IMG/VR virus record: IMGVR_UViG_3300042276_000285
Length of the DNA: 64,000 bases
Strand: one strand, 5' to 3'
Source of the DNA: an uncultured virus (IMG/VR IMGVR_UViG_3300042276_000285)
Taxonomy: Duplodnaviria > Heunggongvirae > Uroviricota > Caudoviricetes
Both the position numbers and the translations under genes were made by a program. Positions within the stretch are counted from its first letter, which is position 1. The number at the start of each line of letters is the position of its first letter. Of this stretch, positions 1 to 38,073 are shown one piece after another. A model generated the notes under the pieces. The model was not told the DNA's origin. It was given only the letters and a program-made list of their open reading frames with translations, and searched no databases.

Positions 1-26
1 CTAATTGGTTTTAATAATAGTTAGCG
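1..26 (+). other. attI-like proximal recombination site of array 1 (may extend left of window)
   Basis: CTAATTGGTTTTAATAATAG|TTAGCGG. Nt 1-23 are the exact reverse complement of 41969-41991 at the end of array 2; no hairpin arm precedes this GTT. Confidence 0.7.
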
Positions 27-809
27 GTAATGCGAACCAAACACATCATCCACCGCTATGTTATAATATTCCTTTTCCTTTTCAATCCCAATAAATCTTC
101 TGTTCAAATCCTTAGCACCTAAACAAGTTGTCCCACTACCCATTGTGTTATCAAGTACATACTCGTTTTCTTCACTATATGCAGTAATCAACCACTTTAT
201 TAAATCCAAAGGTTTTTGAGTTGGGTGCTTTTGGTCTTGTCTTCTCCATTGTTGTGGATAGTCAAGTACAGTAATTGGGTGTCTTGTTCCTTTATTGTCA
301 GTCTGCACCCCTTTTATTCCGTACTTCATATTGTTTTGTTTGTTTGGTGTCCATTTACGTTTATACGGCTTTCCTTCCGTAAGTTGTGGTAAGTAATAAC
401 TTGCACTTTCACCAAATACTAATATCATTTCGTGTTTTTTAAGTGGCATATATTTAGCGGTAAAAGGGCTTCCACACTTACTTTTCTTCCAAACCATATC
501 GTATCTAAATAACCTTTCGTTACTAAGCGCAAGTTTAAAAGCAAACATTCCAGCACCAAACAAAACAATATTTCCCTTTGGTTTTAATATGCGTTCATAT
601 TCAACCCACAACTTGTTTAGGTCTAAAACACTATCCCATTTATTTGCAGTCGTTCCATAAGGCAAGTCAGCCAAAATAAGTTGAACAGATTTATTGGGTA
701 TCAAAGGAAGAATATCCATACAATCCGCATTGAACAAAGCACTACCGCCAACATTGGCTATATGTAATGCCTTATTTCCTGATTCGTATTTAAGTTTTTC
801 TATATCCAT
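21..809 (-). CDS. DNA methyltransferase, N6-A/N4-C family (beta class)
   Basis: DLPYG motif IV, HPTQKP, VLDNTMGSGTT SAM-binding motif, FIGIEKE. The start lies in the attC1 loop and the stop is the TAA of the core at 20-23. Confidence 0.9.
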   Translation of the reverse strand: MDIEKLKYESGNKALHIANVGGSALFNADCMDILPLIPNKSVQLILADLPYGTTANKWDSVLDLNKLWVEYERILKPKGNIVLFGAGMFAFKLALSNERLFRYDMVWKKSKCGSPFTAKYMPLKKHEMILVFGESASYYLPQLTEGKPYKRKWTPNKQNNMKYGIKGVQTDNKGTRHPITVLDYPQQWRRQDQKHPTQKPLDLIKWLITAYSEENEYVLDNTMGSGTTCLGAKDLNRRFIGIEKEKEYYNIAVDDVFGSHYR

Positions 810-876
810 AAGCTCCTACTTCGTATTAATTTTTTTGGTAGTTTATCGGCACTACACATAGCCCTATCCGTTATAC
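746..876 (+). repeat. attC-like site 1 (131 bp)
   Basis: CGCCAACattGGCTATATGTAATGCC ... GGCACTACACATAGCCctatccGTTATAC. Confidence 0.85.
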
Positions 877-958
877 CTCATTGCGCCAAAAAAATTGTAA
901 ATAAATTTGAAAGCTAAATACATGGCGCAACGCACGCAAAACAGAAAAAGTTTTGCTG

Positions 959-1952
959 GTATAACACCATGTATATTTTATAGCTGTATCGTTCATTTAT
1001 TAGGCGTTTCTGCGTAAATCCGTTTTAATAATTTTCCCACCGCACATTAGTTTTTTCAAAACTATTTGGATTCAGATATTTCTTTTATGGAGTTTTCCCA
1101 TTTTTCAATTGATTCCTGATAGCTTTTAATGTTTTTTGTTAAGCTATCAATAGACCTATGTTTAAGGTCGTTTAACTTTTCGGCATCTAATTTTATTCCA
1201 TATTTTTCAGCTAATTTTTTATCATCTGCCGATATTTTATCTTTTTCAGACAATATGCTTTCGAGTTTTGCAATGGCTTCTTCTTTAGTATGAAATGGAA
1301 TAAACTTTTTATGTCCGCCGGAATAATCATAATAATCTCCAATAGCATATGTAAATGAACCGTCATCTTTACCAAAAAATGAAATCAATCTCAATCTTTC
1401 CTCATAGCTTTCGTTAAATTCAGCCATATCCATGATTTTCAAATCATATCCAGTAACAAGAATATACTTTATGTCGCCACAGATATAATCAGCCATTAAA
1501 TCAAATGTTTCAGGCTTAATTTTATCAATAGCAGACTTTATATATTCTATTTTATTTCTAAATTCTTTTGTTATCTCTCTATGTCTTTTTTCTAAACGAG
1601 ACATTTCGTCTAATCTTTGATTATACTCTTTTTTATAACGTTCTTCAACTTCTTTAATCCGTTTTTCTTGCCATGAAACAGCGGGAAAATCATGCAAACT
1701 TCTAACAACGAAGTTTTCACCAGAAGGAACTTCCTGATTATTTACTATAAAAACTTCCTGCACTATCTTTTCTTGTGCATTAAGATTTCCAATAACTACT
1801 ACTTTTTTACCGTCTGTTGTGTACTTAAATTCATTCATTGTTTTATATTTTAAAGTTTAAAAAATCCCTCTCAAAAATTATTAAAACTACGTCAGTTTTT
1901 CATTGAACATTCTGCATTAATCACGCTACAAAACATACATTTTCCGTTACCT
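959..1952 (+). repeat. attC-like site 2, loop expanded by a whole gene
   Basis: Arms ATGTATATTTTATAGC / GCTACAAAACATACAT; inner IR TTTTAATAATTTT / AAAATTATTAAAA. Confidence 0.8.
1062..1838 (-). CDS. Hypothetical phage protein (coiled-coil rich) inside attC2 loop
   Basis: 258-aa ORF with A/T-rich leader; no recognised motif. Confidence 0.8.
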   Translation of the reverse strand: MNEFKYTTDGKKVVVIGNLNAQEKIVQEVFIVNNQEVPSGENFVVRSLHDFPAVSWQEKRIKEVEERYKKEYNQRLDEMSRLEKRHREITKEFRNKIEYIKSAIDKIKPETFDLMADYICGDIKYILVTGYDLKIMDMAEFNESYEERLRLISFFGKDDGSFTYAIGDYYDYSGGHKKFIPFHTKEEAIAKLESILSEKDKISADDKKLAEKYGIKLDAEKLNDLKHRSIDSLTKNIKSYQESIEKWENSIKEISESK

Positions 1953-1962
1953 GCAATAAAAA

Positions 1963-2169
1963 TTACTTGTCATCTCTTTTAGGGCAAGTATATCTAACAT
2001 CGCCTTGCAAGTATTTAATCGCATTCCAAAGGTCATCTAATACTATTGTGCCAAGTGGTAGTAAGTTCCCTTTTCCATCTTTTACGCCAGATAGATAAAT
2101 AGCCAAGTCTTTTAAACTATCAGTTCCTACTATAATTTTTTCTTGCATTGGTTTGTTGTTATCTTCCAT
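1963..2169 (-). CDS. Hypothetical cassette protein (MEDNNKP...)
   Basis: ORF fills body 1946-2194; ATG at 2169. Confidence 0.65.
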   Translation of the reverse strand: MEDNNKPMQEKIIVGTDSLKDLAIYLSGVKDGKGNLLPLGTIVLDDLWNAIKYLQGDVRYTCPKRDDK

Positions 2170-2187
2170 AATCGTAATTTTAAAAGC

Positions 2188-2317
2188 AGGTAACAACGTG
2201 TATAAAAAATAGCTGTTAAGTGCTTTGGTTAATGTTATTTTATTTTTGTTTACTCTTTTACTAATTCAATTTTTAAGTGTGTTAAAACGCTACATTTCAT
2301 ACACAAATACGTTGTGC
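2188..2317 (+). repeat. attC-like site 3 (130 bp)
   Basis: GTGTATAAAAAATAGC / GCTACATTTCATACAC arms, GTT at 2311. Confidence 0.8.
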
Positions 2318-2332
2318 TTCATTAAAACGAAA

Positions 2333-3175
2333 GCACAACATGCAATATAAAACATGCTTAGTGTAGTGCTTCGTTTCAATGTTTCTACAAGTTTGACCAT
2401 AATTAAATATTTTTTTGCCCGCCCGCTTTGGTTTTTTCAAAACCATTAGGTTTTCGTAGTTTTGCAACAAATTCAAATCCAGTTCTTACATTGCCGTTTT
2501 GTCCAAACCCATTGCCATTAGTTTGTACTTGTCTTACTTCTTCAAGCATAAAACCTATCTCAATTAAAATTTTAATATGCCAAGAAAAAGCATCCACAAT
2601 CTTTCCTTTTCGTATATGGTTCTTAAAATTTAGTATAAACAACCCATCTTTTTTCAAAACCCGATACGCCTCTTTCCATGCTTTAATGTGTAAATTCCGA
2701 TAATCTTCGCCCCATTGCATTTTACCGCTATTATTATCGTTAAGAGTTCTACCCAACTTATGTGTGTATGTATTCCTACTACTTCCGTCATTAGCATTGT
2801 GGCAATCTGCCATTCTGTTGCCATATGTTGGGCTTGTGCATATTGCATCAAATTCGCAATTCGCAAATTGCAAATCCGTAGCATCTCCAACAATAGTTCC
2901 TTCTTGCATACCCGCCCATTCTGGTTCAATTTCAACACCTATTGTATCAAAAGGCAAGCTATGTATCTTTCCTGTCCCAGCGAACGGGTCTAAAACAGTC
3001 TTGCATCCTTGAAGCATTTCTTCAAATACTGGTAAAAGTGCATCTGTATATTTAGCTGGGTGCTTTGGTTTATTCATAAAAATCCCTCCCTAAAAAATAT
3101 TTAATTATTACCGTTGTGCTTCGCATCATAGTTTCTGCGTAATTGTCGCACGTTTCATATTGCTGTCCGTTATGT
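2333..3175 (+). repeat. attC-like site 4, loop holds a methyltransferase gene
   Basis: GCAATATAAAACATGC / GCACGTTTCATATTGC arms, GTT at 3169. Confidence 0.8.
2403..3077 (-). CDS. DNA methyltransferase (probable N4-C/N6-A)
   Basis: HPAKY, VLDPFAGTG motif I, TSPTY motif IV, YRVLKKDG. Confidence 0.85.
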   Translation of the reverse strand: MNKPKHPAKYTDALLPVFEEMLQGCKTVLDPFAGTGKIHSLPFDTIGVEIEPEWAGMQEGTIVGDATDLQFANCEFDAICTSPTYGNRMADCHNANDGSSRNTYTHKLGRTLNDNNSGKMQWGEDYRNLHIKAWKEAYRVLKKDGLFILNFKNHIRKGKIVDAFSWHIKILIEIGFMLEEVRQVQTNGNGFGQNGNVRTGFEFVAKLRKPNGFEKTKAGGQKNI

Positions 3176-3415
3176 GGCATTTGTTTCAATCTTCCAGTAC
3201 ATACTACAATAATCAGGGTAAAGTGGCTTTTCTTTTGCAGAATGTTCACCGCTAAACACCTTCATTTCTGTATGGTCAAGAAAGTCTTTCATAAAATAAT
3301 GTTCACCACTTTCGTAATCTTTTTCAGTCTTGTAAGCACAAAAACGCCACATAACAACAGGTATAGTTAATGCTCGTTCTTCTGCTAAGTCGTAATATTT
3401 TTTCTTTTTACTCAT
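3170..3415 (-). CDS. Hypothetical protein crossing attC5/body junction
   Basis: Starts in attC5 loop, GTT core read as Val, stop at next core. Confidence 0.6.
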   Translation of the reverse strand: MSKKKKYYDLAEERALTIPVVMWRFCAYKTEKDYESGEHYFMKDFLDHTEMKVFSGEHSAKEKPLYPDYCSMYWKIETNAT

Positions 3416-3479
3416 TTCTATTTTTAATTAAAGTGAATACTTCTATGGTCGCACTAATCATACCTGTGGTACGTTAGCA
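3349..3479 (+). repeat. attC-like site 5 (131 bp)
   Basis: ACAGGTATAGTTAATGC / GCACTAATCATACCTGT arms. Confidence 0.8.
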
Positions 3480-3485
3480 GTAATA

Positions 3486-4247
3486 CTACATTCCATCTCC
3501 GAATGAAGTTATCACATTAAATTCTTTTTCTTTTCTTTTTTCTTCCACCCTCTTTTTTGAATTAGTAAAATGTTCTAATTCTTTTTCAATGCCAATGAAA
3601 TTTCTATCAGTATTTATACAAGCAATTCCTGTTGAACAACTCCCCATCGTATTATCTAGTACCAAGTCATTTTCATCAGTATATGTTTTGATAAGATATT
3701 CCAACAAATCAACAGGTTTTTCAGAACTATGTAATCTACTGTAATTATCTACACACTTAAACTCTAAAATGTTTGTTGGAAATCTTGTTGTTTTACCACC
3801 TTCGTAATCTCTTGTATTTGTTCCGTGATATGCTTTTCCATTACTGCAACCTTTTGCACTATTTGTTGGTATGTGTCCATCTGTTATTTGTGGATAGTAT
3901 TTACCTTTTTTGAAAATACATATTTCTTCAATTTTTCTAATTGGCATTCGTTTAGCGTGAAAGAAATTAGTTCCTTGATTTTTCAACCAATACCAACAAT
4001 ATCTAAAATCCTTTTCATTGCTTGAAATTATTTTGGTTGTAAATGGCTGTGAAGCAAATAAAGCAATCGTTCCGTTTTTCTTTATTATTCGGTTGTATTG
4101 TTTCCAAAGTTCAATCATATCAATATGTTCATCCCATTTTGGTGCTGTCATCCCATAAGGTAAATCACAACAAATAAAATCAATACTTTTATCAGGTATC
4201 AATTTCATTTGTTCTATTGTATCTCCGTATCTTAAATCTATTGTCAT
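3486..4247 (-). CDS. DNA methyltransferase, N6-A/N4-C family (paralogue of 21..809)
   Basis: DLPYG, HSSEKP, VLDNTMGS, FIGIEKE. Confidence 0.9.
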   Translation of the reverse strand: MTIDLRYGDTIEQMKLIPDKSIDFICCDLPYGMTAPKWDEHIDMIELWKQYNRIIKKNGTIALFASQPFTTKIISSNEKDFRYCWYWLKNQGTNFFHAKRMPIRKIEEICIFKKGKYYPQITDGHIPTNSAKGCSNGKAYHGTNTRDYEGGKTTRFPTNILEFKCVDNYSRLHSSEKPVDLLEYLIKTYTDENDLVLDNTMGSCSTGIACINTDRNFIGIEKELEHFTNSKKRVEEKRKEKEFNVITSFGDGM

Positions 4248-4338
4248 AATTTTATTTTAATATTTTACCACCACACAAAAAAGAAAAGAAAAAGGTTCTG
4301 TTCTTCGATTGAGTATTTGTGGTTTAAATCCGTACTAC

Positions 4339-4432
4339 TGCTAACAGCGTATATAAGAAATGGCACATAAACATTTGTGCTAAATTTCAAGTTCGTGCAA
4401 GTGCCACTTCTCATATACGCAAACCGTTAGCG
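4339..4432 (+). repeat. attC-like site 6 (94 bp)
   Basis: GCGTATATAAGAAATGGCAC / GTGCCACTTCTCATATACGC arms. Confidence 0.9.
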
Positions 4433-4433
4433 G

Positions 4434-4847
4434 TCAGTTTTTTACCTTTAAATAATAAGCATACAACTCCTCTGTTGTCAAATGACCAACCGTGTGAATA
4501 TACCAACTACCACCCCTGTATCTAAACCAGCTATCAGCTTGCATTTTTTTAGCAATCCAGTCTGCGAACAAAACCGAACCGCTAACATTGTGCAAATGTA
4601 AACCGCTCGCTTCGTTGTTGCGTTCAGCCTCCGCGCGTTCTAAAAAATCATTCTCAAAATATTTTTTAATCTTTTTGCGCTCAGATGTTTTTAATTTAGT
4701 TATTTGTTTTTTGTGATATCCGGCTGTATAGTATTTGCCATTCCTTTTTACAGAATCGACAGTATATTCTAAAATTTTGTCGTTTATAATAATTGTAACA
4801 TCATGTGTAAATGTTTTTACTCTTTCTTTAAAATAAGTTATTTCCAT
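4434..4847 (-). CDS. Hypothetical fusion protein (attC7 loop + body)
   Basis: Junction peptide GLHLHNVSGS. Confidence 0.7.
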   Translation of the reverse strand: MEITYFKERVKTFTHDVTIIINDKILEYTVDSVKRNGKYYTAGYHKKQITKLKTSERKKIKKYFENDFLERAEAERNNEASGLHLHNVSGSVLFADWIAKKMQADSWFRYRGGSWYIHTVGHLTTEELYAYYLKVKN

Positions 4848-4932
4848 CGCGCGTTAATTTATAGTTTCGTAACTCGTATCAATGTTCATCTGTAATTCAA
4901 TAGCGGTCAGCACTTGCACTTTGCCGTTATAG
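4580..4932 (+). repeat. attC-like site 7
   Basis: GTGCAAATGTAAACCGCT / AGCGGTCAGCACTTGCAC arms. Confidence 0.8.
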
Positions 4933-5442
4933 TGCATTGCCCACCCGCTCAAAAACGAATTGCTTCGGAAGTAAATTTGAGCATAGGTAAATACTTTTAA
5001 ATGGTACGCCCTTTAGTTCTATTCCTGTCTTTATATAATCAATTCGTTTATCAAACACCATTATTTCAAATTTGTGGGTACTTAATAGTCCGTACCGCTT
5101 TTTGCTATCAAATAAACCTGCTTCATTAATCAACATTGCAAATGGTTTATTAAGTCCAAACAACCGTTCTAAAATCGGTTCTCGTAGGCTGTATGGTGGG
5201 TTACTTATAATTAGGTCGTAATTTTGTTCAGGTTCATACTCGAAAAAGTCTTTCCCTTCGTCAATATGTGAGTGTATAACATTATGGCTTTCACTCAGTA
5301 GTTTCACAAAATTACTTTCGTTCGTATCAAACGGACACCAAACGGTTGTTTTCGGTGGTAAATATGGTAAAAGCGGTACTATTGCGTAATCTTTAGTATA
5401 GTACTCATCGGCTTTGTTCTGTTTAAATTGGTGATTTGCCAT
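4927..5442 (-). CDS. Small phage adenine DNA methyltransferase
   Basis: DEYYT, VWCPFD, GKDFF, IISNPPYS motifs. Confidence 0.8.
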   Translation of the reverse strand: MANHQFKQNKADEYYTKDYAIVPLLPYLPPKTTVWCPFDTNESNFVKLLSESHNVIHSHIDEGKDFFEYEPEQNYDLIISNPPYSLREPILERLFGLNKPFAMLINEAGLFDSKKRYGLLSTHKFEIMVFDKRIDYIKTGIELKGVPFKSIYLCSNLLPKQFVFERVGNAL

Positions 5443-5456
5443 CGCTCAAAAACGCA

Positions 5457-5586
5457 CTATAACAATTTATATAAGTAATAGCCGTTGTAGTGCAATTATT
5501 AGGGCTTATTACTCTGTTTAACATTTGCAATTATTTCAAAGTTCGTGTTTCAAATCGGCTACTACTCATATAAGTATCCGTTATAA
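5457..5586 (+). repeat. attC-like site 8 (130 bp)
   Basis: TTATATAAGTAATAGCCG / CGGCTACTACTCATATAA arms. Confidence 0.85.
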
Positions 5587-5592
5587 AACATT

Positions 5593-5727
5593 TTAAGACA
5601 CATCATATGTCGAAAAATATTCACCATCTATATAAACTATTGCTTCATTTTCACGGTACTTTATTTTAATGTTTGAGCCGTAATTTAACTTTTCTCTGAG
5701 TAATTTAAGTAAGTCTTCTAAATACAT
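5593..5727 (-). CDS. Small hypothetical cassette protein (44 aa, MYLEDLLK...)
   Basis: Translated by hand; fills body 5580-5746. Confidence 0.55.
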   Translation of the reverse strand: MYLEDLLKLLREKLNYGSNIKIKYRENEAIVYIDGEYFSTYDVS

Positions 5728-5739
5728 AATAAAAACGTT

Positions 5740-5835
5740 TTATAACAAAAGCTATAAACAAAAAGCCTCTGTTTGGTTTGTACTTTTAATTATATTTTAT
5801 GGTTCGGCTTTCAGTTCATAGCCAAGCCGTTAGCG
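5740..5835 (+). repeat. attC-like site 9 (96 bp)
   Basis: GCTATAAACAAAAAGCC / GGCTTTCAGTTCATAGC arms. Confidence 0.85.
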
Positions 5836-6123
5836 TTCAGTTTGCCGATTATTGCAAATTTTCCAAATTGTTCCGTTCAGACATTTTCCATTGTATTGGT
5901 CTAAGCATGGTCTGTAATGGCAAACCGCATCGCTAACATGCGGTTTATTGCAGTTGCTCAGCTCGTCCGAACTTTTTGCCAACGCGCGGGGAAGCCATTC
6001 AAAACTTATAACCGAATCAACTCTTTTTTGTCCCTGTTTTTCGTACCAGTCAAATAGCTGGTCTTCCTCGGTTTGCGTTTCTGGTGTAATATGTGGCACA
6101 TTATCTGTAAATTGTATTTTCAT
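5830..6123 (-). CDS. Hypothetical fusion protein with Cys-rich C-terminus
   Basis: Junction peptide NCNKPHVSDA. Confidence 0.65.
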   Translation of the reverse strand: MKIQFTDNVPHITPETQTEEDQLFDWYEKQGQKRVDSVISFEWLPRALAKSSDELSNCNKPHVSDAVCHYRPCLDQYNGKCLNGTIWKICNNRQTER

Positions 6124-6212
6124 CCTACGCTCGTATTTTTATGGTTATTTACTCGTATCAACTTATTCGGTTATTGTAGCGGCAACCGACAACAAACCGC
6201 CAGCCGTTAGCA
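5931..6212 (+). repeat. attC-like site 10
   Basis: GCGGTTTATTGCAGTTGC / GCAACCGACAACAAACCGC arms. Confidence 0.8.
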
Positions 6213-6345
6213 ATAATAAAAACTAACAGTATCAATATGTACCGCCTATTTTGTCACTGCCGCAATTTGCACAGCTTGTAAAATTAAAATGTTCTATATT
6301 ATATGGATTCCATTTGTATCCACATTCCATACATTTACAATAGTC

Positions 6346-6519
6346 TTATTTAAAATCGTTTTTACTATTGCTAACATTATGCAAATTTAAATTTTTAATT
6401 TTCCATTCTGCATATTCGTTCATTGCGTTCAATATCGTGGCTTCCTTGCCTATATCTTCCAAACAAGGTTCCCAACTTCTCCAAATTTCAAGCATTTTTA
6501 AAGTGTCGTTTTTACTCAT
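6346..6519 (-). CDS. Small fusion ORF (57 aa) followed in frame by a stop-separated Zn-ribbon module
   Basis: MSKNDTLKM...NLNLHNVSNSKNDFK* then DYCKCMECG...CANCGSD to TGA at 6232. Confidence 0.5.
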   Translation of the reverse strand: MSKNDTLKMLEIWRSWEPCLEDIGKEATILNAMNEYAEWKIKNLNLHNVSNSKNDFK

Positions 6520-6569
6520 AATATTTCAATTTAAAATTAAAAATCAAAACTTGCACTTGTCCGTTAGCA
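6369..6569 (+). repeat. attC-like site 11
   Basis: TGCAAATTTAAATTTTTAATT / AATTAAAAATCAAAACTTGCA arms. Confidence 0.75.
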
Positions 6570-6578
6570 ATCAGTTTG

Positions 6579-6971
6579 CTAACCATCTATTCCACATTTA
6601 ATACACTTTAATGCAAATGGTATGTCAGATTCTTCGTTTGTTGTCCACTCGTGTTCGCAAACCGCCGTTTCGTCATTTATTTGCGCTTCGTGCTTAACGC
6701 CACATTCGCACTCATAAATAACTTTTGTAATCGGGGCTAATTTGTTGCATAAAGGGCAAATAAATTCCTTCACTTTGCTAACACCATGCAAAGGTAATGC
6801 TGCGCTCTCGTCCAAACTGTTTCCCGATGCTCGTTCTAATTCAAGAATATAATTAGCCAAATATTCTCTTTCATTAATCGTTAGAATATCAGCTTTTGTT
6901 TTGCCAATTAAAGCACTCACAATCATTTTTCGTTCCAATCCAAGTTTATTCAATTTGTTAATGTAATCCAT
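6579..6971 (-). CDS. Hypothetical fusion protein with Zn-ribbon C-terminus
   Basis: Junction peptide DESAALPLHGVS; CxxC pairs. Confidence 0.7.
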   Translation of the reverse strand: MDYINKLNKLGLERKMIVSALIGKTKADILTINEREYLANYILELERASGNSLDESAALPLHGVSKVKEFICPLCNKLAPITKVIYECECGVKHEAQINDETAVCEHEWTTNEESDIPFALKCIKCGIDG

Positions 6972-7057
6972 CGCTCGTATTATTTAATCGTTATTTACTC
7001 GTATCTACTTTCGTGCAGCTTTCAGGGCAGCACATACCCTTGCATTTACCGTTAGCA
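6776..7057 (+). repeat. attC-like site 12 (same shell as 35599-35965)
   Basis: ATGCAAAGGTAATGCTGC / GCAGCACATACCCTTGCAT arms. Confidence 0.9.
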
Positions 7058-7063
7058 GTAATG

Positions 7064-7306
7064 CTATTTGTGCTTATCATAAAATTCAATTAAATGATAT
7101 ATGCACTTCGCATCTCCCGTACTGCTAAACATATACTTTTGCCTCAAATATTCAACCATTTCATCAAGACTTAATGTGTTCCAATCAAACATAGGTGAAG
7201 CACTACTGCTAACACCATGTAAAAAACATTGCTCGGCAAGTTTCTTAGCATCTGGCTTTGGTTCACCTATTATAATCACTTTTGGCTTTTTGTCTTTATC
7301 TTTCAT
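7064..7306 (-). CDS. Hypothetical fusion protein
   Basis: Junction peptide CFLHGVSSSA. Confidence 0.65.
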   Translation of the reverse strand: MKDKDKKPKVIIIGEPKPDAKKLAEQCFLHGVSSSASPMFDWNTLSLDEMVEYLRQKYMFSSTGDAKCIYHLIEFYDKHK

Positions 7307-7339
7307 ATCGCAACGATTTTTTACATTTCAACGTTGTAT
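7207..7339 (+). repeat. attC-like site 13 (133 bp)
   Basis: ATGTAAAAAACATTGC / GCAACGATTTTTTACAT arms. Confidence 0.8.
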
Positions 7340-7491
7340 TTCACGGTAAGACCGAGAGGTTCAGAATCTACTTTAAAAATTCTTGTTTTAAAGTAGTGAA
7401 CCGAAGGGATTACGCGACGGTAGGAGCGAGTGAAATACAACGGCTTCGTGTAAACTTGAAATATGTGACCACTTTAACCGGAGCGAGCGCA

Positions 7492-7768
7492 ACACAACAA
7501 AAGTGTAAACGTAATTTCAAACGCGAGCTTAATTTCATTTCAAGTTCCTGTATTGCTCCCAGCCTTTAAAATTGAAATCTCTTTATTCATTCGCTCAATG
7601 CGTACATCGTATTTTTTAACATCGGTCATATAACCTAAATTTTCGTGTACTTTTCTCAATTCAAGTAACCTATCTCTATAAATTTCAAATGTCTTTAATA
7701 TGTCCATGATATTTCAATTTTAAATTCTTTCTCAATCCAGAAACTACGTTTACACGAAGCCGTTAGGC
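7492..7768 (+). repeat. attC-like site 14
   Basis: GTGTAAACGTAATTTC / GAAACTACGTTTACAC arms. Confidence 0.75.
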
Positions 7769-8053
7769 TTCATTTACCTCCGCACTCATAAATAATTCCC
7801 ATGCCTTTTGGTAGTTCTTATGCCACATTTTTTGTAACTCAATATCTTTATCACTCCAATTGTGTTTAGGCTGTAATTCGGCATAAGAATCATCATCCCA
7901 ACCCATTACAACGCCATACATAAAAGCTATCATCTTATCTTCGCTGCAATCTCTGGAGGTAAATGCGAATGTTTCGTGCAACCTTTGTAATGGGTTTGTT
8001 GGCGTTTCCATCTCATCTCTTGTTTGCCATTTTAATTCTGTATTATCTTTCAT
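7763..8053 (-). CDS. Hypothetical cassette protein (MKDNTELK...)
   Basis: ORF between CCWCCGCAC direct repeats; stop in core. Confidence 0.7.
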   Translation of the reverse strand: MKDNTELKWQTRDEMETPTNPLQRLHETFAFTSRDCSEDKMIAFMYGVVMGWDDDSYAELQPKHNWSDKDIELQKMWHKNYQKAWELFMSAEVNEA

Positions 8054-8086
8054 AATATTGTTTTTATCCCACCGCACAAAACGAAA

Positions 8087-8216
8087 GCCTAACAATGTAT
8101 AAAAATAATAGGCGGTTACGTGCGTGTAGGTAGTTTATAATCATTTAATTAATTGTATTCTGTTTGCGAAGTTCAGCGTTTCAAATCGCCTACTATTCTT
8201 ATACTCACCGTTACCG
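8087..8216 (+). repeat. attC-like site 15 (130 bp, related to site 8)
   Basis: GTATAAAAATAATAGGCG / CGCCTACTATTCTTATAC arms. Confidence 0.85.
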
Positions 8217-8286
8217 TGCATGCTAAATTTTAATTTAGTGCCGTGCTTAATCAGAAAGTGTTTAACCTTTAAGAAAAAGCACGACA

Positions 8287-8635
8287 CGGTAACAATGTGT
8301 AACTACAAAATGCTCGTAGCTCGTAAAACCATTTAGCCATCACACAACTCTGTTACCAGTAAGTCTTATCTTACCATCATCTTTTGGCTGTGTTTCCATT
8401 ACAATAAATTCACTTCCGTCTGAATTGTGTCTGTGCAATATTACAATTGCATCTAATTCAACTTTCCCATAAACAGAATCACCATAGTCTATGGTAACTT
8501 TTCTTGTTTTTGTTTTTCTTGTAGGCATATTTATTTATTTAGTTGCCCTCCGCGCTGTACTTTGGGCTGTTAATTCTCGTATCAAAGTCGCTGCAAATTT
8601 GAAGCAGCATTCAGTAGTTACACCAACCGTTAACG
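8287..8635 (+). repeat. attC-like site 16
   Basis: GTGTAACTACAAAATGCT / AGCATTCAGTAGTTACAC arms. Confidence 0.85.
8340..8528 (-). CDS. Small hypothetical protein in attC16 loop
   Basis: 62-aa ORF flanked by CCATCACAC / CCTCCGCGC. Confidence 0.6.
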   Translation of the reverse strand: MPTRKTKTRKVTIDYGDSVYGKVELDAIVILHRHNSDGSEFIVMETQPKDDGKIRLTGNRVV

Positions 8636-8977
8636 CACATGCTGAGAATCGTATTCATCAGCAGCTTTGCGTAATTCGTTATATTCTATAACAGGTACAG
8701 TAAACTTTTTGAAACGGTGTGCAATCTTTGAACCATCTACATATTCAGCAAGGTTTCCGCAGCTTTCAACAAAAGCACGTGCGTTAACACAAGCTAAATG
8801 CAAACCGCCTTCGGTATCTGAATCGGGCTTGCCAACGCTCGCAATAAATTTGGCTGTTAACTCTTTATTTCTGTAAAGAAATTCAGTTATAACTTGTGAG
8901 TTAGTCGTGTCATTGTTAACCTTCCAATCGGTTTTTTTATCAATGAAGGTTAGTAGTTCATTTAAAAATTTTTCCAT
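8630..8977 (-). CDS. Hypothetical fusion protein
   Basis: Junction peptide GGLHLACVNARA. Confidence 0.7.
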   Translation of the reverse strand: MEKFLNELLTFIDKKTDWKVNNDTTNSQVITEFLYRNKELTAKFIASVGKPDSDTEGGLHLACVNARAFVESCGNLAEYVDGSKIAHRFKKFTVPVIEYNELRKAADEYDSQHVR

Positions 8978-9061
8978 CGCTTCGGTATTTTAAAGTTATT
9001 TGTTATCTGATAATTCATCGGTTATTCAAAAGGCGGTCAGCACTTAGCTAAACCGTTAGCA
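8782..9061 (+). repeat. attC-like site 17 (family of site 7)
   Basis: AGCTAAATGCAAACCGCCTT / AAGGCGGTCAGCACTTAGCT arms. Confidence 0.85.
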
Positions 9062-9113
9062 ACAATGCCTTTAAATAATTGCCAACACTCAAAAGCCTTA
9101 CACAAGGCACAGT

Positions 9114-9537
9114 TGCTAACACGTTGTATAAAACATGCTTGCGGTAGTGCCTCGTGCTAGCTTCGGTGCTTAATTGGAGCAAAATAATAATGCCCCACGC
9201 ACAACAACTACTTTTTAATTTCAGGCCAACTCCACTCGCGCTCTCCTGTACCCAAAACAGCAGAAGTTACCCAAAGGTTTTCTTCTCCATCAAGTAGTAC
9301 TTTAAGGTTTACGCACTCGTCACCCCACACAGCAGTAATAACCGCAGGTGCATCTTCTTGGTAATTGTTCATCTTGTCCTTTTGCTCTTCATCACAATGA
9401 TAAATCACAATTCTACCTATTGTTGGTGTCATAACTAAATATGGGTTTTACAAAGCCCGCCCAGGGCATTATTATTTTTTCTCTCGTGTGAAGGTCAGTG
9501 CAAATTTGCCGTACTTGCCATATTGCCACCGTTAGCT
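9114..9537 (+). repeat. attC-like site 18 with non-matching (hybrid) outer arms
   Basis: Both boxes present; inner IR AAAATAATAATGCC / GGCATTATTATTTT; outer arms do not pair. Confidence 0.6.
9208..9432 (-). CDS. Small phage protein (MTPTIGRIVIY...WSWP)
   Basis: PTIGRIV / PAVIT / VNLKV / W-WP pattern typical of a common small phage protein. Confidence 0.75.
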   Translation of the reverse strand: MTPTIGRIVIYHCDEEQKDKMNNYQEDAPAVITAVWGDECVNLKVLLDGEENLWVTSAVLGTGEREWSWPEIKK

Positions 9538-10288
9538 ACAAAGCCAACAACTGTTCGTACTTTTTTAAACATTTACGGCAAATTAAGCGTGTGTCTATTT
9601 TTGTCGGTTGCTTATCCAACGCACGAAATGGAATATTGCCGTCAGGGTGTGTATATTTTGAATCATCTTTTGTTTTATCATAGGTTGGTAAGCCAGAAAG
9701 CGATAATGTATTATAGCCACCATTTTTTACTGAATATCCTGTCGTTTTATGATCTGGTTCGCAAAGAACTTTTCCATCAACGGCAATATGACGTTTTTTA
9801 GTAGCCCAACACAAAGCAACCTTGCGTTCTGCGTTTGGCTCAGTAGCTAACACATTACATAGGTCATTTGCTTTGCTATTCGGATGTTTGGTACTTTTAT
9901 TCATCGTATCTGTTTTTTGAAGTTTTGTAAATTTATTCAGGGGCAAACGCCCCATGTAATCGGCACGGTACCATTCATTCGCCCCACCGCACATCGTAAT
10001 ATCATTGTAACCACCAATTCCAACAACTTTTGCATCATCCCAATTACTTATCCCGTATTTAAACTCTCGCATTTCTGTGTAGGGTTTTCCTTTAAATCTA
10101 ACATCGGGCTTTGGCATCTTATCAAACATGAAGAAACCATCACAGCAATGCAACTGTTTTTCGCTGTAATAAAATACGTGCGTAGCCCTATTCTTTCTAA
10201 ATGGGTTACTCATAAACGCCCAACACTGCAACGAAATGGTAACAATGTGTAGGCGTAATGCCTTCGTTTTTTTAATTAAAGTTTTCAT
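9536..10288 (-). CDS. Read-through fusion of two cassettes
   Basis: Spans attC20, body 20, attC19 and body 19; core mutation at 9968 removes the internal TAA. Confidence 0.55.
   Translation of the reverse strand: MKTLIKKTKALRLHIVTISLQCWAFMSNPFRKNRATHVFYYSEKQLHCCDGFFMFDKMPKPDVRFKGKPYTEMREFKYGISNWDDAKVVGIGGYNDITMCGGANEWYRADYMGRLPLNKFTKLQKTDTMNKSTKHPNSKANDLCNVLATEPNAERKVALCWATKKRHIAVDGKVLCEPDHKTTGYSVKNGGYNTLSLSGLPTYDKTKDDSKYTHPDGNIPFRALDKQPTKIDTRLICRKCLKKYEQLLAL
9845..9973 (+). repeat. attC-like site 19 with mutated core (GGT)
   Basis: ATTACATAGGTCATTTGC / GCAAACGCCCCATGTAAT arms; GGTACCATT where GTTACCATT is expected. Confidence 0.8.
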
Positions 10289-10354
10289 ATACTTTTAGTT
10301 TTTAAGTTTTAAAACGAGTCAGTGGTGGCACTCCGCCTACACCAACCGTTATAG
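10237..10354 (+). repeat. attC-like site 20 (118 bp)
   Basis: GTGTAGGCGTAATGCC / GGCACTCCGCCTACAC arms. Confidence 0.85.
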
Positions 10355-10372
10355 TGCATTTCCATCCGCACT

Positions 10373-10537
10373 CTAAATCTGTTTATAAAATTCAATTTCT
10401 TTTCTTGTCATAGGTACTACTTGGTAACCATAACCTTGTTCTGCTTTCCAGTTAAAACATTCTTCGTATGTACCTGCATATACCTCATTACCCTCATCTT
10501 CATGGTAAACTAAATCAATTACTTTATGTGTTTTCAT
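10373..10537 (-). CDS. Small hypothetical cassette protein (MKTHKVID...)
   Basis: ORF in body 10348-10578. Confidence 0.6.
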   Translation of the reverse strand: MKTHKVIDLVYHEDEGNEVYAGTYEECFNWKAEQGYGYQVVPMTRKEIEFYKQI

Positions 10538-10630
10538 TTTATAATTTGTTATGCCTACCCGCAAAAACGCACTATAACAAGCGGTCATAAAAAATTGCGG
10601 GGTTAGCGGTTAACATTTAAACTTCTACAC

Positions 10631-14502: not shown

Positions 14503-14592
14503 TGTTTTATTTTTTTTAAAATTAAAATTTTCGTTTGTTTACTGGCATTGCTGCCAGTGGTCACAATTTGCGGACTGCCAACCAGGAAAATA

Positions 14593-18438: not shown

Positions 18439-18672
18439 TCATATAACATACAGTATGCTTTTTTCGTCTATGTAAATGTAGTTAATTCCGTGTATTTTTA
18501 CGTTTGTGCCTCCACGACGAAACACTACCTCGTCTCCGGGGATAAGTTCCGAGCCTTCTCCTGCGACACGAACTGTGCCGTCAAACAAATCTTTGAATTT
18601 GTCTGGAACTATTATTCCGTCTTGTTTCTTTTTTTCTATTAATAGTTTTCCTTCGAGTACATTCATTGCCAT
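18439..18672 (-). CDS. GroES/Cpn10-like co-chaperonin
   Basis: GIIVP, GTVRVAGEG, PGDEVVF, IDEKSILYVI. Confidence 0.75.
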   Translation of the reverse strand: MAMNVLEGKLLIEKKKQDGIIVPDKFKDLFDGTVRVAGEGSELIPGDEVVFRRGGTNVKIHGINYIYIDEKSILYVI

Positions 18673-18701
18673 ATTTTTATATGCTTAACATGCAGTAAAA
18701 A

Positions 18702-19382
18702 CTACAAAACTCCCTGTATCCAACATCGCTGCAAGTATCCTATTCCTTTTTCAAGTATCGCAAATACGTCGTTTTCTATTTCTGTAAACCAGTTTCCTTC
18801 AAACACAACCACGTCGCCAACGCTAACATCAGCATCTACCATCAAAGAGTTGTGATACATGTCGTTTTTTCTTCCTGTGTACAAAACCTTTCCAAGACGC
18901 TTGTTCTGAAAGTCTCCAAAGTCAAGAATCAATCCTTCCACGCGCACGTTGTCAACAACTGGCTCTACAACAACGTTTCCGTTCAATGGGTATATTTCTC
19001 CGTTTCTGGCGCGAAGAATCAACTCTGAATAGTTAACAACAAAATATATATCGTTGCCACATTTAATAACCGGGGCGTTAGCACCTTCCATCTTTCCAAA
19101 GAACACAACGTCTCCTTCTTCAATCTCCACTTGTGTCTTCCATCCCATAGCACCTTCAAACATAGTCTCCCATTGTCCAATCAACTTCTTTGGTGCTTTT
19201 ACTACTGTTCCGTATCGTGCTACACGCCCCGGTTCGTCCCATTCCCCACCAGCTAAGATAATACTGCCAAACTTAGTTCCATCTTCCGGGACAAAATCAA
19301 CCTTAACTAAAACCTTGTTGTTTATCATTGGCTTGTTGCCAAGTTCTTTTAATTCTATCTTTTGTCGTTCTGCTATTCCCAT
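18702..19382 (-). CDS. Tandem double-GroES-like protein
   Basis: Two repeats: NKVLV..GSIIL..GTVV..EGDVVFF and PLNGNVVVEP..GLIL..GKV..VGDVVVF. Confidence 0.75.
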   Translation of the reverse strand: MGIAERQKIELKELGNKPMINNKVLVKVDFVPEDGTKFGSIILAGGEWDEPGRVARYGTVVKAPKKLIGQWETMFEGAMGWKTQVEIEEGDVVFFGKMEGANAPVIKCGNDIYFVVNYSELILRARNGEIYPLNGNVVVEPVVDNVRVEGLILDFGDFQNKRLGKVLYTGRKNDMYHNSLMVDADVSVGDVVVFEGNWFTEIENDVFAILEKGIGYLQRCWIQGVL

Positions 19383-19606
19383 ACAACAATTTTTTTAACG
19401 TTCACGAGCTTCTCTCCGTCTTTGCTAAAACAATGCCTGCCAAAATACAACACGCGGCTGCCGTCTGGAACATTGCCGTTGCCGTCCACAACAACACCCC
19501 ATTCCATTTTTGGGTCTGACGCAGTTTCCGGTATGATAATTCCGCTTGCCGTTACACGCTCGTATGGCTCAGGTCTTACTAATATGCTGTTTCCTGTTGG
19601 TTTCAT
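19373..19606 (-). CDS. GroES/Cpn10-like co-chaperonin
   Basis: MKPTGNSILVRP..TASGIIIPETA..GVVV. Confidence 0.85.
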   Translation of the reverse strand: MKPTGNSILVRPEPYERVTASGIIIPETASDPKMEWGVVVDGNGNVPDGSRVLYFGRHCFSKDGEKLVNVKKIVVWE

Positions 19607-24444: not shown

Positions 24445-24571
24445 GTACAACGTTTGGTGCAAGTGGTGTTAGCCAACCGTATTGCAAATAATATAACACC
24501 GCAAAATGGTTAACGTGTGCAGATTTTTGTGAGTAACGCATTGGGCTAATGCCATTTGCACATTGTTAGCG
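24445..24571 (-). repeat. Orphan attC-like site (127 bp)
   Basis: TACAACGtttgGTGCAAGTGGTGTTAGCC ... GGCTAATGCCATTTGCACattGTTAGCG. Confidence 0.8.
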
Positions 24572-35259: not shown

Positions 35260-35592
35260 ATGAGCGAATTTGAAAACGGATATTATTGGGTAAGTTATAA
35301 AGGTATGAAACCTGTAATTATGGAAAAAGATAATTATGGATGGAATGCTATGGGTATAGAAACCGAACCAGATTTAACAGATTATAAAGTATTAGGAAAG
35401 GTAAGCGAATGGGATTTGAGCGTACCACAAGCAAATGAATTATCACCGCATGTTAGCGGTAGTGCTTTTCCTAAGTACGATTGCGATGATTGTAAACACT
35501 ACCCCTGCCAAACAGAACCAGATAGCCACGGAAGCCGACAAAGAAAAATAGAATACGGTAAATGCGGAGACCATAGCGAAAGATGTGATTAG
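35260..35592 (+). CDS. Hypothetical fusion protein, Cys-rich C-terminus
   Basis: Junction peptide NELSPHVSGSA. Confidence 0.65.
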   Translation: MSEFENGYYWVSYKGMKPVIMEKDNYGWNAMGIETEPDLTDYKVLGKVSEWDLSVPQANELSPHVSGSAFPKYDCDDCKHYPCQTEPDSHGSRQRKIEYGKCGDHSERCD

Positions 35593-35598
35593 CATTAC

Positions 35599-35965
35599 CG
35601 CTAACGGTAAATGCAAGGGTATGTGCTGCCATGAAAGTTGCACAGACAATGATACGAGTAAACGACAAAACAAATAAAAGCGATGGAAAAAATAACTTAT
35701 TACACAAACAGCGGTGAATTTATAGCTGACAAATTACTGCCATGTCCTTTTTGTGGGGGTGAGCCTGAATTTATAACAATCGGAAACTACCACACAAAGA
35801 GTAGAAAAGCACAAATTGAATGTACCAAATGCCATGTAAGGCGAACAACTGGCACAATTAGAAATGACCTTGAATGGTGTGGACGTAAAGCAATTGAGGC
35901 TTGGAACGCGCGTTGGCAAGACAGTTCGGACGAGAGCGCAGCATTACCTTTGCATGATGTTAGCG
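35599..35965 (-). repeat. attC-like site sharing its shell with 6776-7057
   Basis: GCTAACGGTAAATGCAAGGGTATGTGCTGCC and GGACGAGAGCGCAGCATTACCTTTGCATG identical to the reverse complement of site 12. Confidence 0.9.
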
Positions 35966-36120
35966 CGTCGTTGCTTAAAAAATACATGACTTTGATAATT
36001 GATTGTGAAGGAGTGGACTTCCTTTATAAAATAGATACAATGCAAGATACACAGGAATGGACAGACGAAGAGGTTGAAGCTTTAACTGAACTTTCAGAAT
36101 CAATTAGCAATGCGCGCTAA
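35683..36120 (+). CDS. Lar-like (restriction alleviation) Zn-binding domain fused to a cassette body
   Basis: LLPCPFCGGE ... IECTKC ... AIEAWN. Confidence 0.7.
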   Translation: MEKITYYTNSGEFIADKLLPCPFCGGEPEFITIGNYHTKSRKAQIECTKCHVRRTTGTIRNDLEWCGRKAIEAWNARWQDSSDESAALPLHDVSASLLKKYMTLIIDCEGVDFLYKIDTMQDTQEWTDEEVEALTELSESISNAR

Positions 36121-36233
36121 CGGTTTGTACAAGTTGCGTTTTAAAACTGACGATTATTTGAAATACTAAAGTAATATTTTTAAAAGCGAAGCGGGGGCGT
36201 TTTCTCCTGCATAAATTTAATACATACAGCAAA

Positions 36234-36929
36234 ATGAAAAATTTAAAAGAAATGACAGAACAAGAAATTCTTGCGTTAACAGATGAAGAAATTACGCTTA
36301 GAATTAAGCTGAAAAAGGCAGAAGAAGGAATTAAATTAGTTCCAAAACCCAAAATGCCTTCCTATTTTGATATTGAAGAACCTGACAAAACAGTTTATTA
36401 TTGCGAGTTATTCGGTGATGATTTGTGTTTTGAAAGCATGGAAGAACTTACTAAATTGATTCAATTGATTTCTGGTAGCGAAACAAAATGTTCGGTTACC
36501 TATGACTACAATAAAGCCGGGTCTGAATATTCTTATATCACGTCAAAAATGAAAACACGTGGTTACAGCTATAAAGAATGGAGTGTGACTGGTTCGAAAC
36601 GTGTTTATTCAATCGAAAAATACAATGCTTGTGTTGATATGATTGCTCAGAACAAAAAAATGAAAGAGCAATATGAAAAAGAATTAAAAGAATATGAAGC
36701 TGCTATTTCGGAAGCCAAATGGATTGAAGATGAAATAAACGACCGTGTTCGCGAAGTTCGTGACAAATATTGGAAACTAAATGAATATTGCCGTAAATTT
36801 AAACTTGATTATTTGCCACTTGCAGACGAAAATGAAGACGTGGCAATGAAGTTTATGGATAAAGCATATTCGTTAACTGACGAACAAAAGGAATACGTTC
36901 TATCAAATTATGCAGGATTAAATTCCTAA
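36234..36929 (+). CDS. Hypothetical protein inside attC loop
   Basis: 231-aa ORF. Confidence 0.8.
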   Translation: MKNLKEMTEQEILALTDEEITLRIKLKKAEEGIKLVPKPKMPSYFDIEEPDKTVYYCELFGDDLCFESMEELTKLIQLISGSETKCSVTYDYNKAGSEYSYITSKMKTRGYSYKEWSVTGSKRVYSIEKYNACVDMIAQNKKMKEQYEKELKEYEAAISEAKWIEDEINDRVREVRDKYWKLNEYCRKFKLDYLPLADENEDVAMKFMDKAYSLTDEQKEYVLSNYAGLNS

Positions 36930-37168
36930 ACAGCTTTGCTGTATGCGGGAGGGGCTTTTAAAAATATGGTTAATTAAGCTCCACCGTTGATTAGATGCAC
37001 GGCAAAAATGCAATTTGTACTTTGTTATAAACTGTAGCCGTGCTTCTTCTAATCTTTTTAAACATACAGTTTTCACGGCTATTGTTTATAACGGTTGGTG
37101 TTTGTTTAGTTTGCCAACCGGATTGCAGAGAATTTTAATTGAAATACTAAAATATCAAATTACGCGCG

Positions 37169-37947: not shown

Positions 37948-38073
37948 ATGCAGCATAACGGTCGAGTGTATGAGTAGTGTGGCTTTGCACATACTTTCTT
38001 TCGACTTACAGATAAACTTATTTAGCCACATTACTTATACACTTTGTTATAGGTATGTAAAAATTTATGGATT

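Follow-up and report, generated by a model that had tools for sequence, protein, structure and literature searches.

We analysed a 64,000-nucleotide (nt) stretch of DNA (hereafter the window) from an uncultured phage of the Caudoviricetes (IMG/VR record IMGVR_UViG_3300042276_000285), which carries two arrays of integron-like hairpin sites with cargo genes between them. A number of open reading frames (ORFs) start inside the loop of such a hairpin, run through the GTT at its 3′ foot and continue into the cargo, an arrangement that would join a loop-borne front half to a cargo-borne back half. The focal case is an ORF of 137 amino acids (aa) at 4434–4847, whose features are listed together with the extent of the two arrays.

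746–10578, minus strand: left array of hairpin sites and cargos, with 16 TAACGG feet plus others ending in AACG
35452–41436, plus strand: right array; TAACGG feet number 11, and a complete Lar restriction-alleviation domain is encoded in one loop
4434–4847, minus strand: focal ORF, 137 aa; N-module residues 1–87, linker GLHLHN-V-SGS, C-module residues 88–137
4926–4938, minus strand: 5′ foot of the N-module hairpin, an R-box arm ending in TAAC; it closes the methyltransferase cargo 5463 to 4929 and pairs with GTTATAGTGCGTT at 5463 with 1 mismatch in 13
4900–4925, minus strand: 5′ stem arm (GG plus arm), pairing with 4587–4608 across 342 nt; cognate score 24, best non-cognate score 22
4848–4899, minus strand: conserved loop leader, made up of GATACGAG, about 22 nt, ACGCGCG and then ATG; the ATG lies 81 nt after AAC
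4587–4608, minus strand: 3′ stem arm, pairing with the 5′ arm and read as codons (...SGLHLHN)
4574–4586, minus strand: GTT box, in which the R-box foot GTTA is followed by a cargo-specific extension; Val88 is encoded by GTT; pairs with ACTGACCGCTAAC at 4426–4438
4426–4438, minus strand: R-box arm that closes the C-module cargo (...CCGCTAAC); the ORF stop TGA (4434–4436) lies within the arm extension, just ahead of the TAAC core

The focal junction box is GTTAGC at 4586–4581. An AlphaFold2 model of the 137-aa ORF, built on a 28-sequence alignment, gave two folded parts with a mean predicted local distance difference test score (pLDDT) of 90.6, and confidence dipped (mean 64) at residues 81–90, which are the linker. 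Foldseek found nothing in the PDB resembling the model at E ≤ 0.001, and neither module had a family in Pfam or PHROGs.

Classical integrons, which include sedentary chromosomal arrays, consist of the integrase IntI, an attI site and attC sites, the last with R and L boxes, an AAC/GTT core and a length of about 57–141 bp. The boxes described earlier in the window as GTT boxes are the 3′ feet of hairpin sites of this general kind. On the coding strand the unit reads 5′-(cargo-specific arm)TAAC-GG-arm...loop...arm-T-GTTA(cargo-specific arm)-3′, and the context ATG/CTG-N5-TAACGG occurs 16 times on the minus strand (873–10351) and 11 times on the plus strand (35602–41310). We detected 25 array sites in the window, running in direct order along each array. 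Within each cargo, the opening arm (GTTA plus 9 nt) is complementary to that cargo's own closing arm (9 nt plus TAAC), with variable bases changing in step; for 23 of 27 TAAC feet, a partner that begins with GTT lies upstream and pairs with at most 3 mismatches in 13. The arm after TAAC pairs with the arm before the next GTTA, both in compact sites of 89–131 nt and across 190–370 nt, ten sites in the window being 196–372 nt long with coding sequence inside. For 23 of 24 hairpins, no arm paired better with the 5′ arm than its cognate 3′ arm (mean score 32 against 14.2 for non-cognate arms), a test that is partly circular because the finder that drew up the 24-hairpin list itself picks the best arm within 650 nt. 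One compact site has the following properties.

4339–4432, minus strand: compact hairpin site, 94 nt; 63.1 bits with covariance model R1; DNA fold −20.0 (top strand) and −14.5 kcal/mol (bottom strand); precedes the methyltransferase cargo 4345 to 3476

An alignment of 38 sites (7 from the window and 31 bacterial), from which the covariance model R1 was built, contained 22 consensus pairs, 13 of them with compensatory changes, and three positions that are G·U in 38 of 38 sites. TAAC and GTTA are nearly invariant in it; the full GTTRRRY consensus is kept only in part. Counts of strict GTTRRRY/RYYYAAC motifs showed no enrichment, because the boxes are GTTAGC- or GTTATG-like. The stem has no bulged bases and instead three invariant G·T positions (C·A on the other strand), spaced 8-1-4-1-6, which by analogy could take the role of the extrahelical bases of attC. 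An IS200/IS605- or REPIN-like hairpin element was also considered and dropped, since one-gene arrays of the site are headed by a tyrosine recombinase (see below) and no HUH enzyme was seen.

These folding data bear on a first alternative, namely that the hairpins are RNA-level elements that fold in the mRNA with G·U pairs for processing, stability or translation control and that the fusions are incidental. Consistent with it, in 10 of 11 compact sites of the window the more stable fold is that of the G·T strand, which is the sense strand, and not that of the bottom strand (as in the site at 4339–4432), the three G·U positions are invariant, and a conserved leader of about 80 nt lies ahead of the loop ATG. 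However, the bacterial sites described below are antisense to the genes, so that the conserved fold is no mRNA feature there; complementary arms specific to each cargo, and cassettes swapped among unrelated phages, indicate a site of DNA recombination; and no Rfam family matched the sites, either at gathering or at E ≤ 1. We regard an RNA-level function as improbable.

Eight loops of the window contain a start codon followed by 48–92 codons, and all eight are read through the foot with GTT as Val. Two more hold complete ORFs that stop ahead of the arm (37169–37444 and 8340–8528). Among these ten long loops, the ATG lies 79–85 nt after AAC in seven, the start is ATGG in eight, and GATACGAG or AATACGAG stands some 20–30 nt upstream of the ATG in six. 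The remaining junctions crossed by ORFs in the window are listed here.

35683–36120, plus strand: fusion ORF with a Lar front; Lar is residues 17–77, in the loop (domain match E = 1.7e-10); GTT 35959–35961; linker SAALPLHD-V-SAS; 53-residue C-module ending on the R-box TAA
6579–6971, minus strand: fusion ORF; GTT 6780–6782; linker LPLHGVSK; Cys-rich C-module; scaffold matches that of 35683–36120, both bodies unrelated
8630–8977, minus strand: fusion ORF; GTT 8786–8788; linker LHLACVNAR; the stop is the R-box TAA
5830–6123, minus strand: fusion ORF; GTT 5935–5937; linker KPHVSDA; Cys-rich C-module; the stop is the R-box TAA
38343–38684, plus strand: fusion ORF; GTT 38535–38537; linker LNLCCVSSR
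38736–39119, plus strand: fusion ORF; GTT 38895–38897; linker NLQNVNRR; the stop is the R-box TAA
35260–35592, plus strand: first junction of the right array; GTT 35452–35454; linker SPHVSGS; 64-codon N-module; upstream, a 5′ hairpin arm was not detected
6346–6519, minus strand: loop ORF of 48 codons; GTT 6373–6375 in frame; linker LNLHNVSNS; stop 9 codons later
21–809, minus strand: DNA methyltransferase with a 19-codon leader from a compact hairpin; GTT 750–752; linker ALHIANVGGS; Pfam domain from residue 42
3170–3415, minus strand: short-leader case; GTT 3353–3355; linker IPVVMWR; in-frame ATG immediately next (GTTATG)
7064–7306, minus strand: short-leader case, 31 codons; GTT 7211–7213; linker FLHGVSSS
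9536–10288, minus strand: ORF of 250 aa over two junctions; GTT 10241–10243 in frame with a 15-codon leader, linker LRLHIVTIS; out-of-frame exception at 9849–9851

All 13 linkers that the preliminary description had listed with GTT as an in-frame Val codon are present (13 of 14 junctions against an expectation of 1/2, p = 9e-4), and so is the single exception it had noted at 9851 (NVLAT), which is read as xxG TTA through a degenerate hairpin scoring only 25.4 bits with R1 (9845–9973). The in-frame observation is real and goes beyond chance. Other parts of the first account needed trimming. Long N-modules (48–92 codons) that start in a detected loop are present at only 8 of the 13 junctions, and the junction at 35452 has no detectable 5′ arm. 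Four junctions have short leaders, of 15–31 codons, at 752, 3355, 7213 and 10243; a later start is possible for each of them, and they are candidate fusions only. The supposed two-module protein at 6375 is not one, because its stop comes 9 codons after the GTT; the cargo behind that GTT has its own Cys-rich ORF of 32 aa (6232–6330). The remark that one of the three frames is closed by TAG or TAA is true of GTTAG and GTTAA boxes, and frame 3 is generally open. Short frame-1 ORFs also cross the compact hairpins at 4345 and 8093, and these look non-coding.

The frame distribution in a larger set had been named beforehand as a check on the idea of a fixed frame. We ran the stem-finder on 2 GenBank and 25 IMG/VR loci, leaving out the window's own phage and taking sites on the dominant strand with scores of at least 24. 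Loop ORFs of at least 38 codons that reach the GTT fell into frames 1, 2 and 3 as 10:1:1 in these 27 viral loci (120 sites) and as 8:0:0 in the window (25 sites). Taken together, long loop modules use the Val frame in 18 of 20 cases (p = 2e-7 against 1/3 and 2e-4 against 1/2).

The cargo side of the junction has a matching structure. Of 10 fusion cargos, 9 keep the GTT at their start in phase with the TAA at their end, and 5 use that closing-foot TAA as their stop; among the 16 remaining cargos the two are in phase in 4 (Fisher p = 0.004). By inspection, 4 of 8 C-modules lack any Met. The recurrent linker has the consensus L-x-L-H-x-V-S. R boxes of the GTTATG type, with an ATG directly after the GTT and in the same frame, were seen at 3355, 9435, 37653, 39958, 41119 and 41430; the start of ORF 9208–9432 is exactly the ATG of such a box, and a 'V-M-x-R-F' reading recurs in other phages. 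Because GTTATG boxes put the ATG in the frame of the GTT, the phase-0 convention also fits cargos with their own start codon.

We searched the 137-aa ORF with HMMER against 1.84 billion representative proteins (E ≤ 0.001), fetched 34 of the 37 matches and set aside one repetitive match of 408 aa (P0055). Only the ORF itself spanned both parts; 7 matches covered the N-part only and 28 the C-part only. The C-module, recognizable by the motif FAxWIxxK...WFRY...GHLTTEELY, stands behind at least nine unrelated fronts, joined at V in P0002, P0003, P0027, P0028, P0029, P0031 and P0036, at A in P0034 and at I in P0040. It also occurs alone (P0030, P0037, P0048, P0051) and as a front half before 'DVSVS/DVSAS' and a Cys-rich tail (P0042, P0043). 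The N-module occurs alone in P0033, P0041, P0049 and P0056, and near-identical N-module fronts carry two other backs: 'LDLQNVSNS' with a Cys-rich tail in P0025, and 'LDLHFVSVP' with another Cys-rich tail in P0026. A related-locus search with this ORF returned only an identical contig of the same phage.

The Lar fusion behaved in the same way. A word-indexed protein search gave 21 matches, of which 18 were fetched. The Lar N-module is paired with five C-modules, namely its own and four more on non-self fronts of 81–85% identity, the backs following SAAL(P/T)LH(D/G)V in its relatives, with P0019 using another linker type. Many of the matches are stand-alone Lar proteins of 79–87 aa. The back half of the window's Lar fusion recurs behind two unrelated fronts (P0020 and P0021), and one viral locus (L166) has a different front with a back half that resembles that of P0008 by eye, no alignment being involved. 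Polaribacter phage P12002L has ORFs with the same junctions, for example an HNH endonuclease followed by FINGV and a Cys-rich tail. The related-locus search with the Lar fusion yielded two identical loci and two of another phage, in which Lar is fused by a different linker without a hairpin.

N- and C-modules thus do not always co-occur in homologues, and one N-module is found with different C-modules for both the 137-aa ORF and Lar, as the preliminary description had anticipated. The predicted proteins show combinatorial pairing of halves at the Val codon, and the swaps are not rare, since near-identical fronts (P0025 and P0026; Lar at 81–85%) carry different backs. These results also bear on the simplest alternative, in which the ORFs are vertically inherited two-domain proteins whose linker is a conserved protein motif, the DNA repeats merely following from it. 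The linker does have a recognizable peptide consensus; yet its codons pair with a non-coding arm 190–370 nt upstream, the same arms occur in compact, non-coding sites, and the modules re-pair freely. We give this alternative almost no credence.

The site is not confined to phages. A strict two-half pattern of the site, about 125 nt in length, matched at least 121 stretches in species-representative genomes, nearly all of Bacteroidota with some Ignavibacteria, Calditrichia and others outside the phylum, and 30 stretches in IMG/VR. The covariance model found 15 sites in 17 kb of a Prolixibacteraceae chromosome (L135, G004:C1:2312000-2331900) and 7 sites in an Aquimarina contig (L134, G006:C48:306000-325800). 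Both arrays have one gene per interval and, at the head, a co-oriented Xer-like tyrosine recombinase of 368–375 aa. These recombinases pass the cut-off of 220 bits for the NCBIfam model NF040815 ('site-specific tyrosine recombinase/integron integrase') with 228 and 224 bits, and score 200 and 197 bits against the cut-off of 265 for the IntI model TIGR02249, leaving its positions of about 180–237 unmatched. TIGR02249 was above cut-off in none of five Bacteroidota genomes having the site. Elsewhere on the same Prolixibacteraceae chromosome, further strict-pattern sites lie up to about 265 kb away.

ORFs beside the sites at 12 bacterial loci encode, among others, Shedu, GmrSD, HEPN, TIR, NACHT, Mrr, PIN and beta-lactamase-fold proteins, and no tyrosine recombinase lies within 4 kb. 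Among five viral records with arrays that were examined, a 327-kb phage record (L167, G009:C1:13335-17090) has a 276-aa Xer-like recombinase beside the array (196.8 bits to NF040815); the other four, one of them a complete 84-kb phage with 14 sites, lack one. The strict pattern also matches a Riemerella contig (L085). By the structure of their sites, the phage arrays belong to an integron-like cassette system of Bacteroidota. As a separate observation, an identical compact site with the same downstream arm was found in contigs labelled Prevotellamassilia, Sphingobacterium and an Erysipelotrichaceae metagenome-assembled genome (L035, L049 and L063), in L035 among genes for ABC-F, nucleotidyltransferase and hydrolase proteins and IS4-type transposases, which suggests recent wide transfer of one cassette.

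Phage and bacterial arrays are oriented differently. In the bacteria, at the 12 loci and in both arrays alike, the genes are carried by the complement of the G·T strand and are followed by the hairpin; in the phage, genes lie on the G·T strand with the hairpin ahead of the cargo. In a classical integron the gene is upstream of attC on the top strand, with crossover at G↓TT of R′ and cleavage of the bottom strand at RYYYAA↓C (arrows mark the crossover). Because the phage cassettes are inverted relative to the bacterial arrays, the canonical crossover here would fall at TAA↓C, at the end of the C-module, and not at GTT; the canonical cassette would then be hairpin plus cargo, that is, a whole fused gene. 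The single-gene unit reported in Riemerella anatipestifer consists of a gene with 27 bp of its 5′ untranslated region ahead of it and, behind it, 140 bp that fold like attC (PMC13148043), and this unit matches the hairpin-plus-cargo cassette deduced for the phage. The preliminary description was correct that canonical IntI crossover would not separate the modules, and an exchange at the GTT foot is needed besides.

Breakpoints of both kinds can be seen. The unrelated Flavobacterium phage mymlan6-1 has a methyltransferase cargo with 86% identity to the one at 4345 to 3476, the identity extending only from GTTAGCAGTAG to ...CTGCTAACG (GTTA to TAAC), with different flanking hairpins. The scaffold copies at 7240–6760 and 35425–35985 share the opening arm, the closing arm with the 5′ stem arm, leader and ATG, and the 3′ stem arm with GTTAGC, and they enclose unrelated N and C bodies. 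The hairpin at 2178–2315 is 91% identical to 39109–39246 of Polaribacter phage P12002L and has different neighbours there. As read from these breakpoints, exchange is shown at both feet, TAA↓C and G↓TTA. Contigs of four other runs join the array at or near feet (4429, 4440/6777, 7054/10565, 9526–9528) and also elsewhere (2381, 3111, 4247); array pieces occur in other contexts in these runs, 0.51–0.83 of the records continuing into unlike sequence, and we take such joints as a sign of mosaicism only.

The reading that we favour, and hold to be slightly more probable than not, is that these are arrays of hairpin sites whose loop-borne fronts fuse in frame to cargo-borne backs and are re-paired by exchange at the GTT foot. 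Translation would start in the loop and run through the 3′ arm and the GTTA foot, yielding the L-x-L-H-x-V-S linker; it would then enter a cargo that needs no start codon of its own and end at, or in phase with, the closing-foot TAA. Canonical exchange at TAA↓C would move whole genes, and exchange at the GTT foot would re-pair any loop-borne N-module with any cargo-borne C-module in frame. Such an exchange keeps the frame because fusion cargos all begin in phase 0 at the GTT and most end in phase. The second exchange would presumably use the other strand of the folded site, recombined by an Xer-like recombinase of the host or of a co-infecting phage, with homologous recombination between the conserved arms as the alternative. 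The fusion products are predicted from reading frames, and their translation is presumed.

Several points weigh against this reading. The re-pairing requires a second route, because the canonical crossover does not lie at the GTT box, and no recombinase was found among 78 ORFs of the window scanned with Pfam, about 15 kb of the genome lying outside view; the near-identical record G001 likewise had no PF00589 match. Leaders of 10–37 codons with at least 15 codons downstream showed no frame bias in the other phages (13:8:10), the window giving 5:1:0. When all crossing ORFs are pooled (score at least 26, 111 sites), the frames are 26:8:10 against an arm openness of 92:42:60, a mild excess only; the fixed frame is therefore a property of long loop-borne modules and not of every crossing ORF. 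To these come the early stop at 6375 and the crossing of 9851 in another frame. Each module is found on its own as well, so the fusion may be neutral. The metagenome proteins are gene-caller predictions, and the stem-finder probably returns about 7 false sites among 32 in the window at a threshold of 22.

Some of these points fit a further alternative, in which the fusions are a tolerated by-product: whole genes (hairpin plus cargo) would be mobile at TAA↓C, read-through would arise from the inverted cassettes, and GTT swaps would be occasional homologous recombination, between conserved arms in co-infecting phages, without a selected role in making new proteins. The canonical boundary is indeed TAA↓C (PMC13148043). 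Scaffold arms of up to about 45–85 nt are near-identical between unrelated modules, which is enough for phage recombinases, and the contigs of the other runs join and leave the array at many places and not at the feet alone; stand-alone modules and short leaders without frame bias likewise fit it. It accounts less well, however, for the frame-1 preference of long loop ORFs, for fusion cargos without a start codon whose two feet are in phase, for near-identical fronts with different backs, and for the compensatory variation of the arms, which implies that folding is under selection as well as homology. We consider a mere by-product rather unlikely. As for the exon-shuffling-like diversification device envisaged in the preliminary description, the re-pairing of halves and the fixed frame of long modules stand, and a selected role is conjecture. 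Put in full, the proposal would be DNA-level exon shuffling, with the loop as promoter-leader plus front half, the foot as a phase-0 codon (GTT entry, TAA exit), and an Xer-like integron-type recombinase that acts on either strand and re-pairs halves into combinatorial small anti-defence proteins in Bacteroidota phages. This fuller version is tentative, and we would put its chances somewhat below even.

The phage itself is tailed, with a large terminase, a portal protein, a virion-type protein of 2616 aa and a weak crAss-like muzzle match, and was detected in wastewater metagenomes. Genes of the window lie on the minus strand up to about 21.5 kb and on the plus strand beyond. Record G001 is 98% similar and 61 kb in length. 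DNA methyltransferases are among the cargos, five in the left array and two in the right; because the cargos include methyltransferases and Lar, their content suggests that the array serves anti-restriction functions. Two further kinds of site were recorded.

24445–24571, plus strand: solitary hairpin site outside the arrays; R1 36.7 bits, stem score 33
3078–3172 (minus strand), 39117–39204 (plus strand) and 40036–40117 (plus strand): orphan 5′ half-sites; a Shine-Dalgarno-like TTTTAGGGAGGG..ATG also precedes each methyltransferase gene

The three methyltransferase genes at 2403–3077, 39205–39867 and 40118–40834 each lie behind one of these orphan half-sites (TAACGG plus arm), with no matching 3′ arm, which looks like gene insertion into the hairpin by another route. 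The unit 2382–3111 was found in other contexts on contigs of other runs. Away from the arrays, 14526–14592 (minus strand), between small early-region ORFs, scores 41.8 bits with the type-P3 twister ribozyme model (RF03154), above its gathering score of 39.9, and three minus-strand ORFs (18439–18672, 18702–19382 and 19373–19606) each match part of the GroES/Cpn10 family, so that 18439–19606 looks like a split or interrupted co-chaperonin gene.

The sites are integron-like, yet they depart from classical attC and IntI in several defining respects. The inverted-repeat hairpin and the AAC/GTT core with cargo-specific pairing are present, and the lengths do not keep to the attC range. Both systems have folded single-strand sites with R and L boxes in which the first bases of the cargo pair with its own far arm, and both have one gene per cassette, arrays adjoining a tyrosine recombinase, and defence and anti-defence cargo. 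In contrast to classical integrons, the recombinase of the bacterial arrays lacks the additional IntI-specific segment and falls below the IntI cut-off, invariant mismatches replace bulges, loops reach 370 nt and hold coding sequence, and the phage cassettes are inverted with exchange at both feet. The gene-upstream orientation of a complete integron is found in the bacterial arrays and not in the phage.

Other known systems place recombination sites within genes. Shufflons, invertible tail-fibre segments (R64 Rci/sfx; Mu G, P1 C) and hsdS shuffling work by inversion within one locus, with a dedicated recombinase and few alternatives. They resemble the present arrays in having sites inside coding sequence, a fixed frame and alternative C-parts on a constant N-part; here, however, the exchange is between genomes, the cassettes are in direct order, and neither half is constant. 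A shufflon has inverted sites in one gene and a linked recombinase, and the window has direct-order sites and no recombinase. Fused integron cassettes arise by loss of attC, and ORF-11 of attI1 is a short leader peptide; in these, too, coding sequence crosses a recombination site into the next cassette, although they are isolated cases without a recurrent phase-compatible junction or whole domains in the loop of the site. In T4-type phages, promoter-stem-loop (PeSL) cassettes occupy intergenic positions and mediate the homology-based shuffling of whole ORFs. Like the present sites, they are conserved short scaffolds between small accessory phage genes that promote modular shuffling, but in-frame junctions and cargo-specific arms with compensatory changes are absent from them.

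The closest published relatives are of two kinds. Clusters of attC sites without an integrase (CALINs) have been reported from virulent phages, including Polaribacter phage P12002L, for which two sites were given, IntI1 being active on one (Qi et al., 2023; PMC9892861). With at least two attC-type sites and no integrase nearby, the window has what defines a CALIN, and it shares with those phages attC-like hairpin arrays and methyltransferase cargo. Loop-start ORFs, the fixed frame and the re-pairing of halves described here do not appear in the passages of that paper available to us. In Riemerella anatipestifer, single-gene cassettes with an attC-like 3′ hairpin move by a mechanism described as 'yet to be elucidated' (PMC13148043); the host phylum is the same and the mobile unit is a gene together with some 140 bp of hairpin region, with no homology at its flanks, yet the hairpin follows the gene, holds no coding sequence and makes no protein fusion. 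The literature that we searched contained no account of in-frame read-through or half re-pairing at such sites. The present data tie the phage arrays to a wide Bacteroidota cassette system with an Xer-like recombinase, which in print we found only as fragments, namely the CALINs of phages and the cassettes of Riemerella. Should the fusions be produced, they would constitute a prokaryotic and viral route to new domain combinations, akin to exon shuffling between introns of compatible phase, and would offer a ready natural design for modular protein assembly. Integron-type systems are understood as shufflers of whole genes; here the site also carries coding sequence and a phase convention, by which it would re-pair the halves of proteins.

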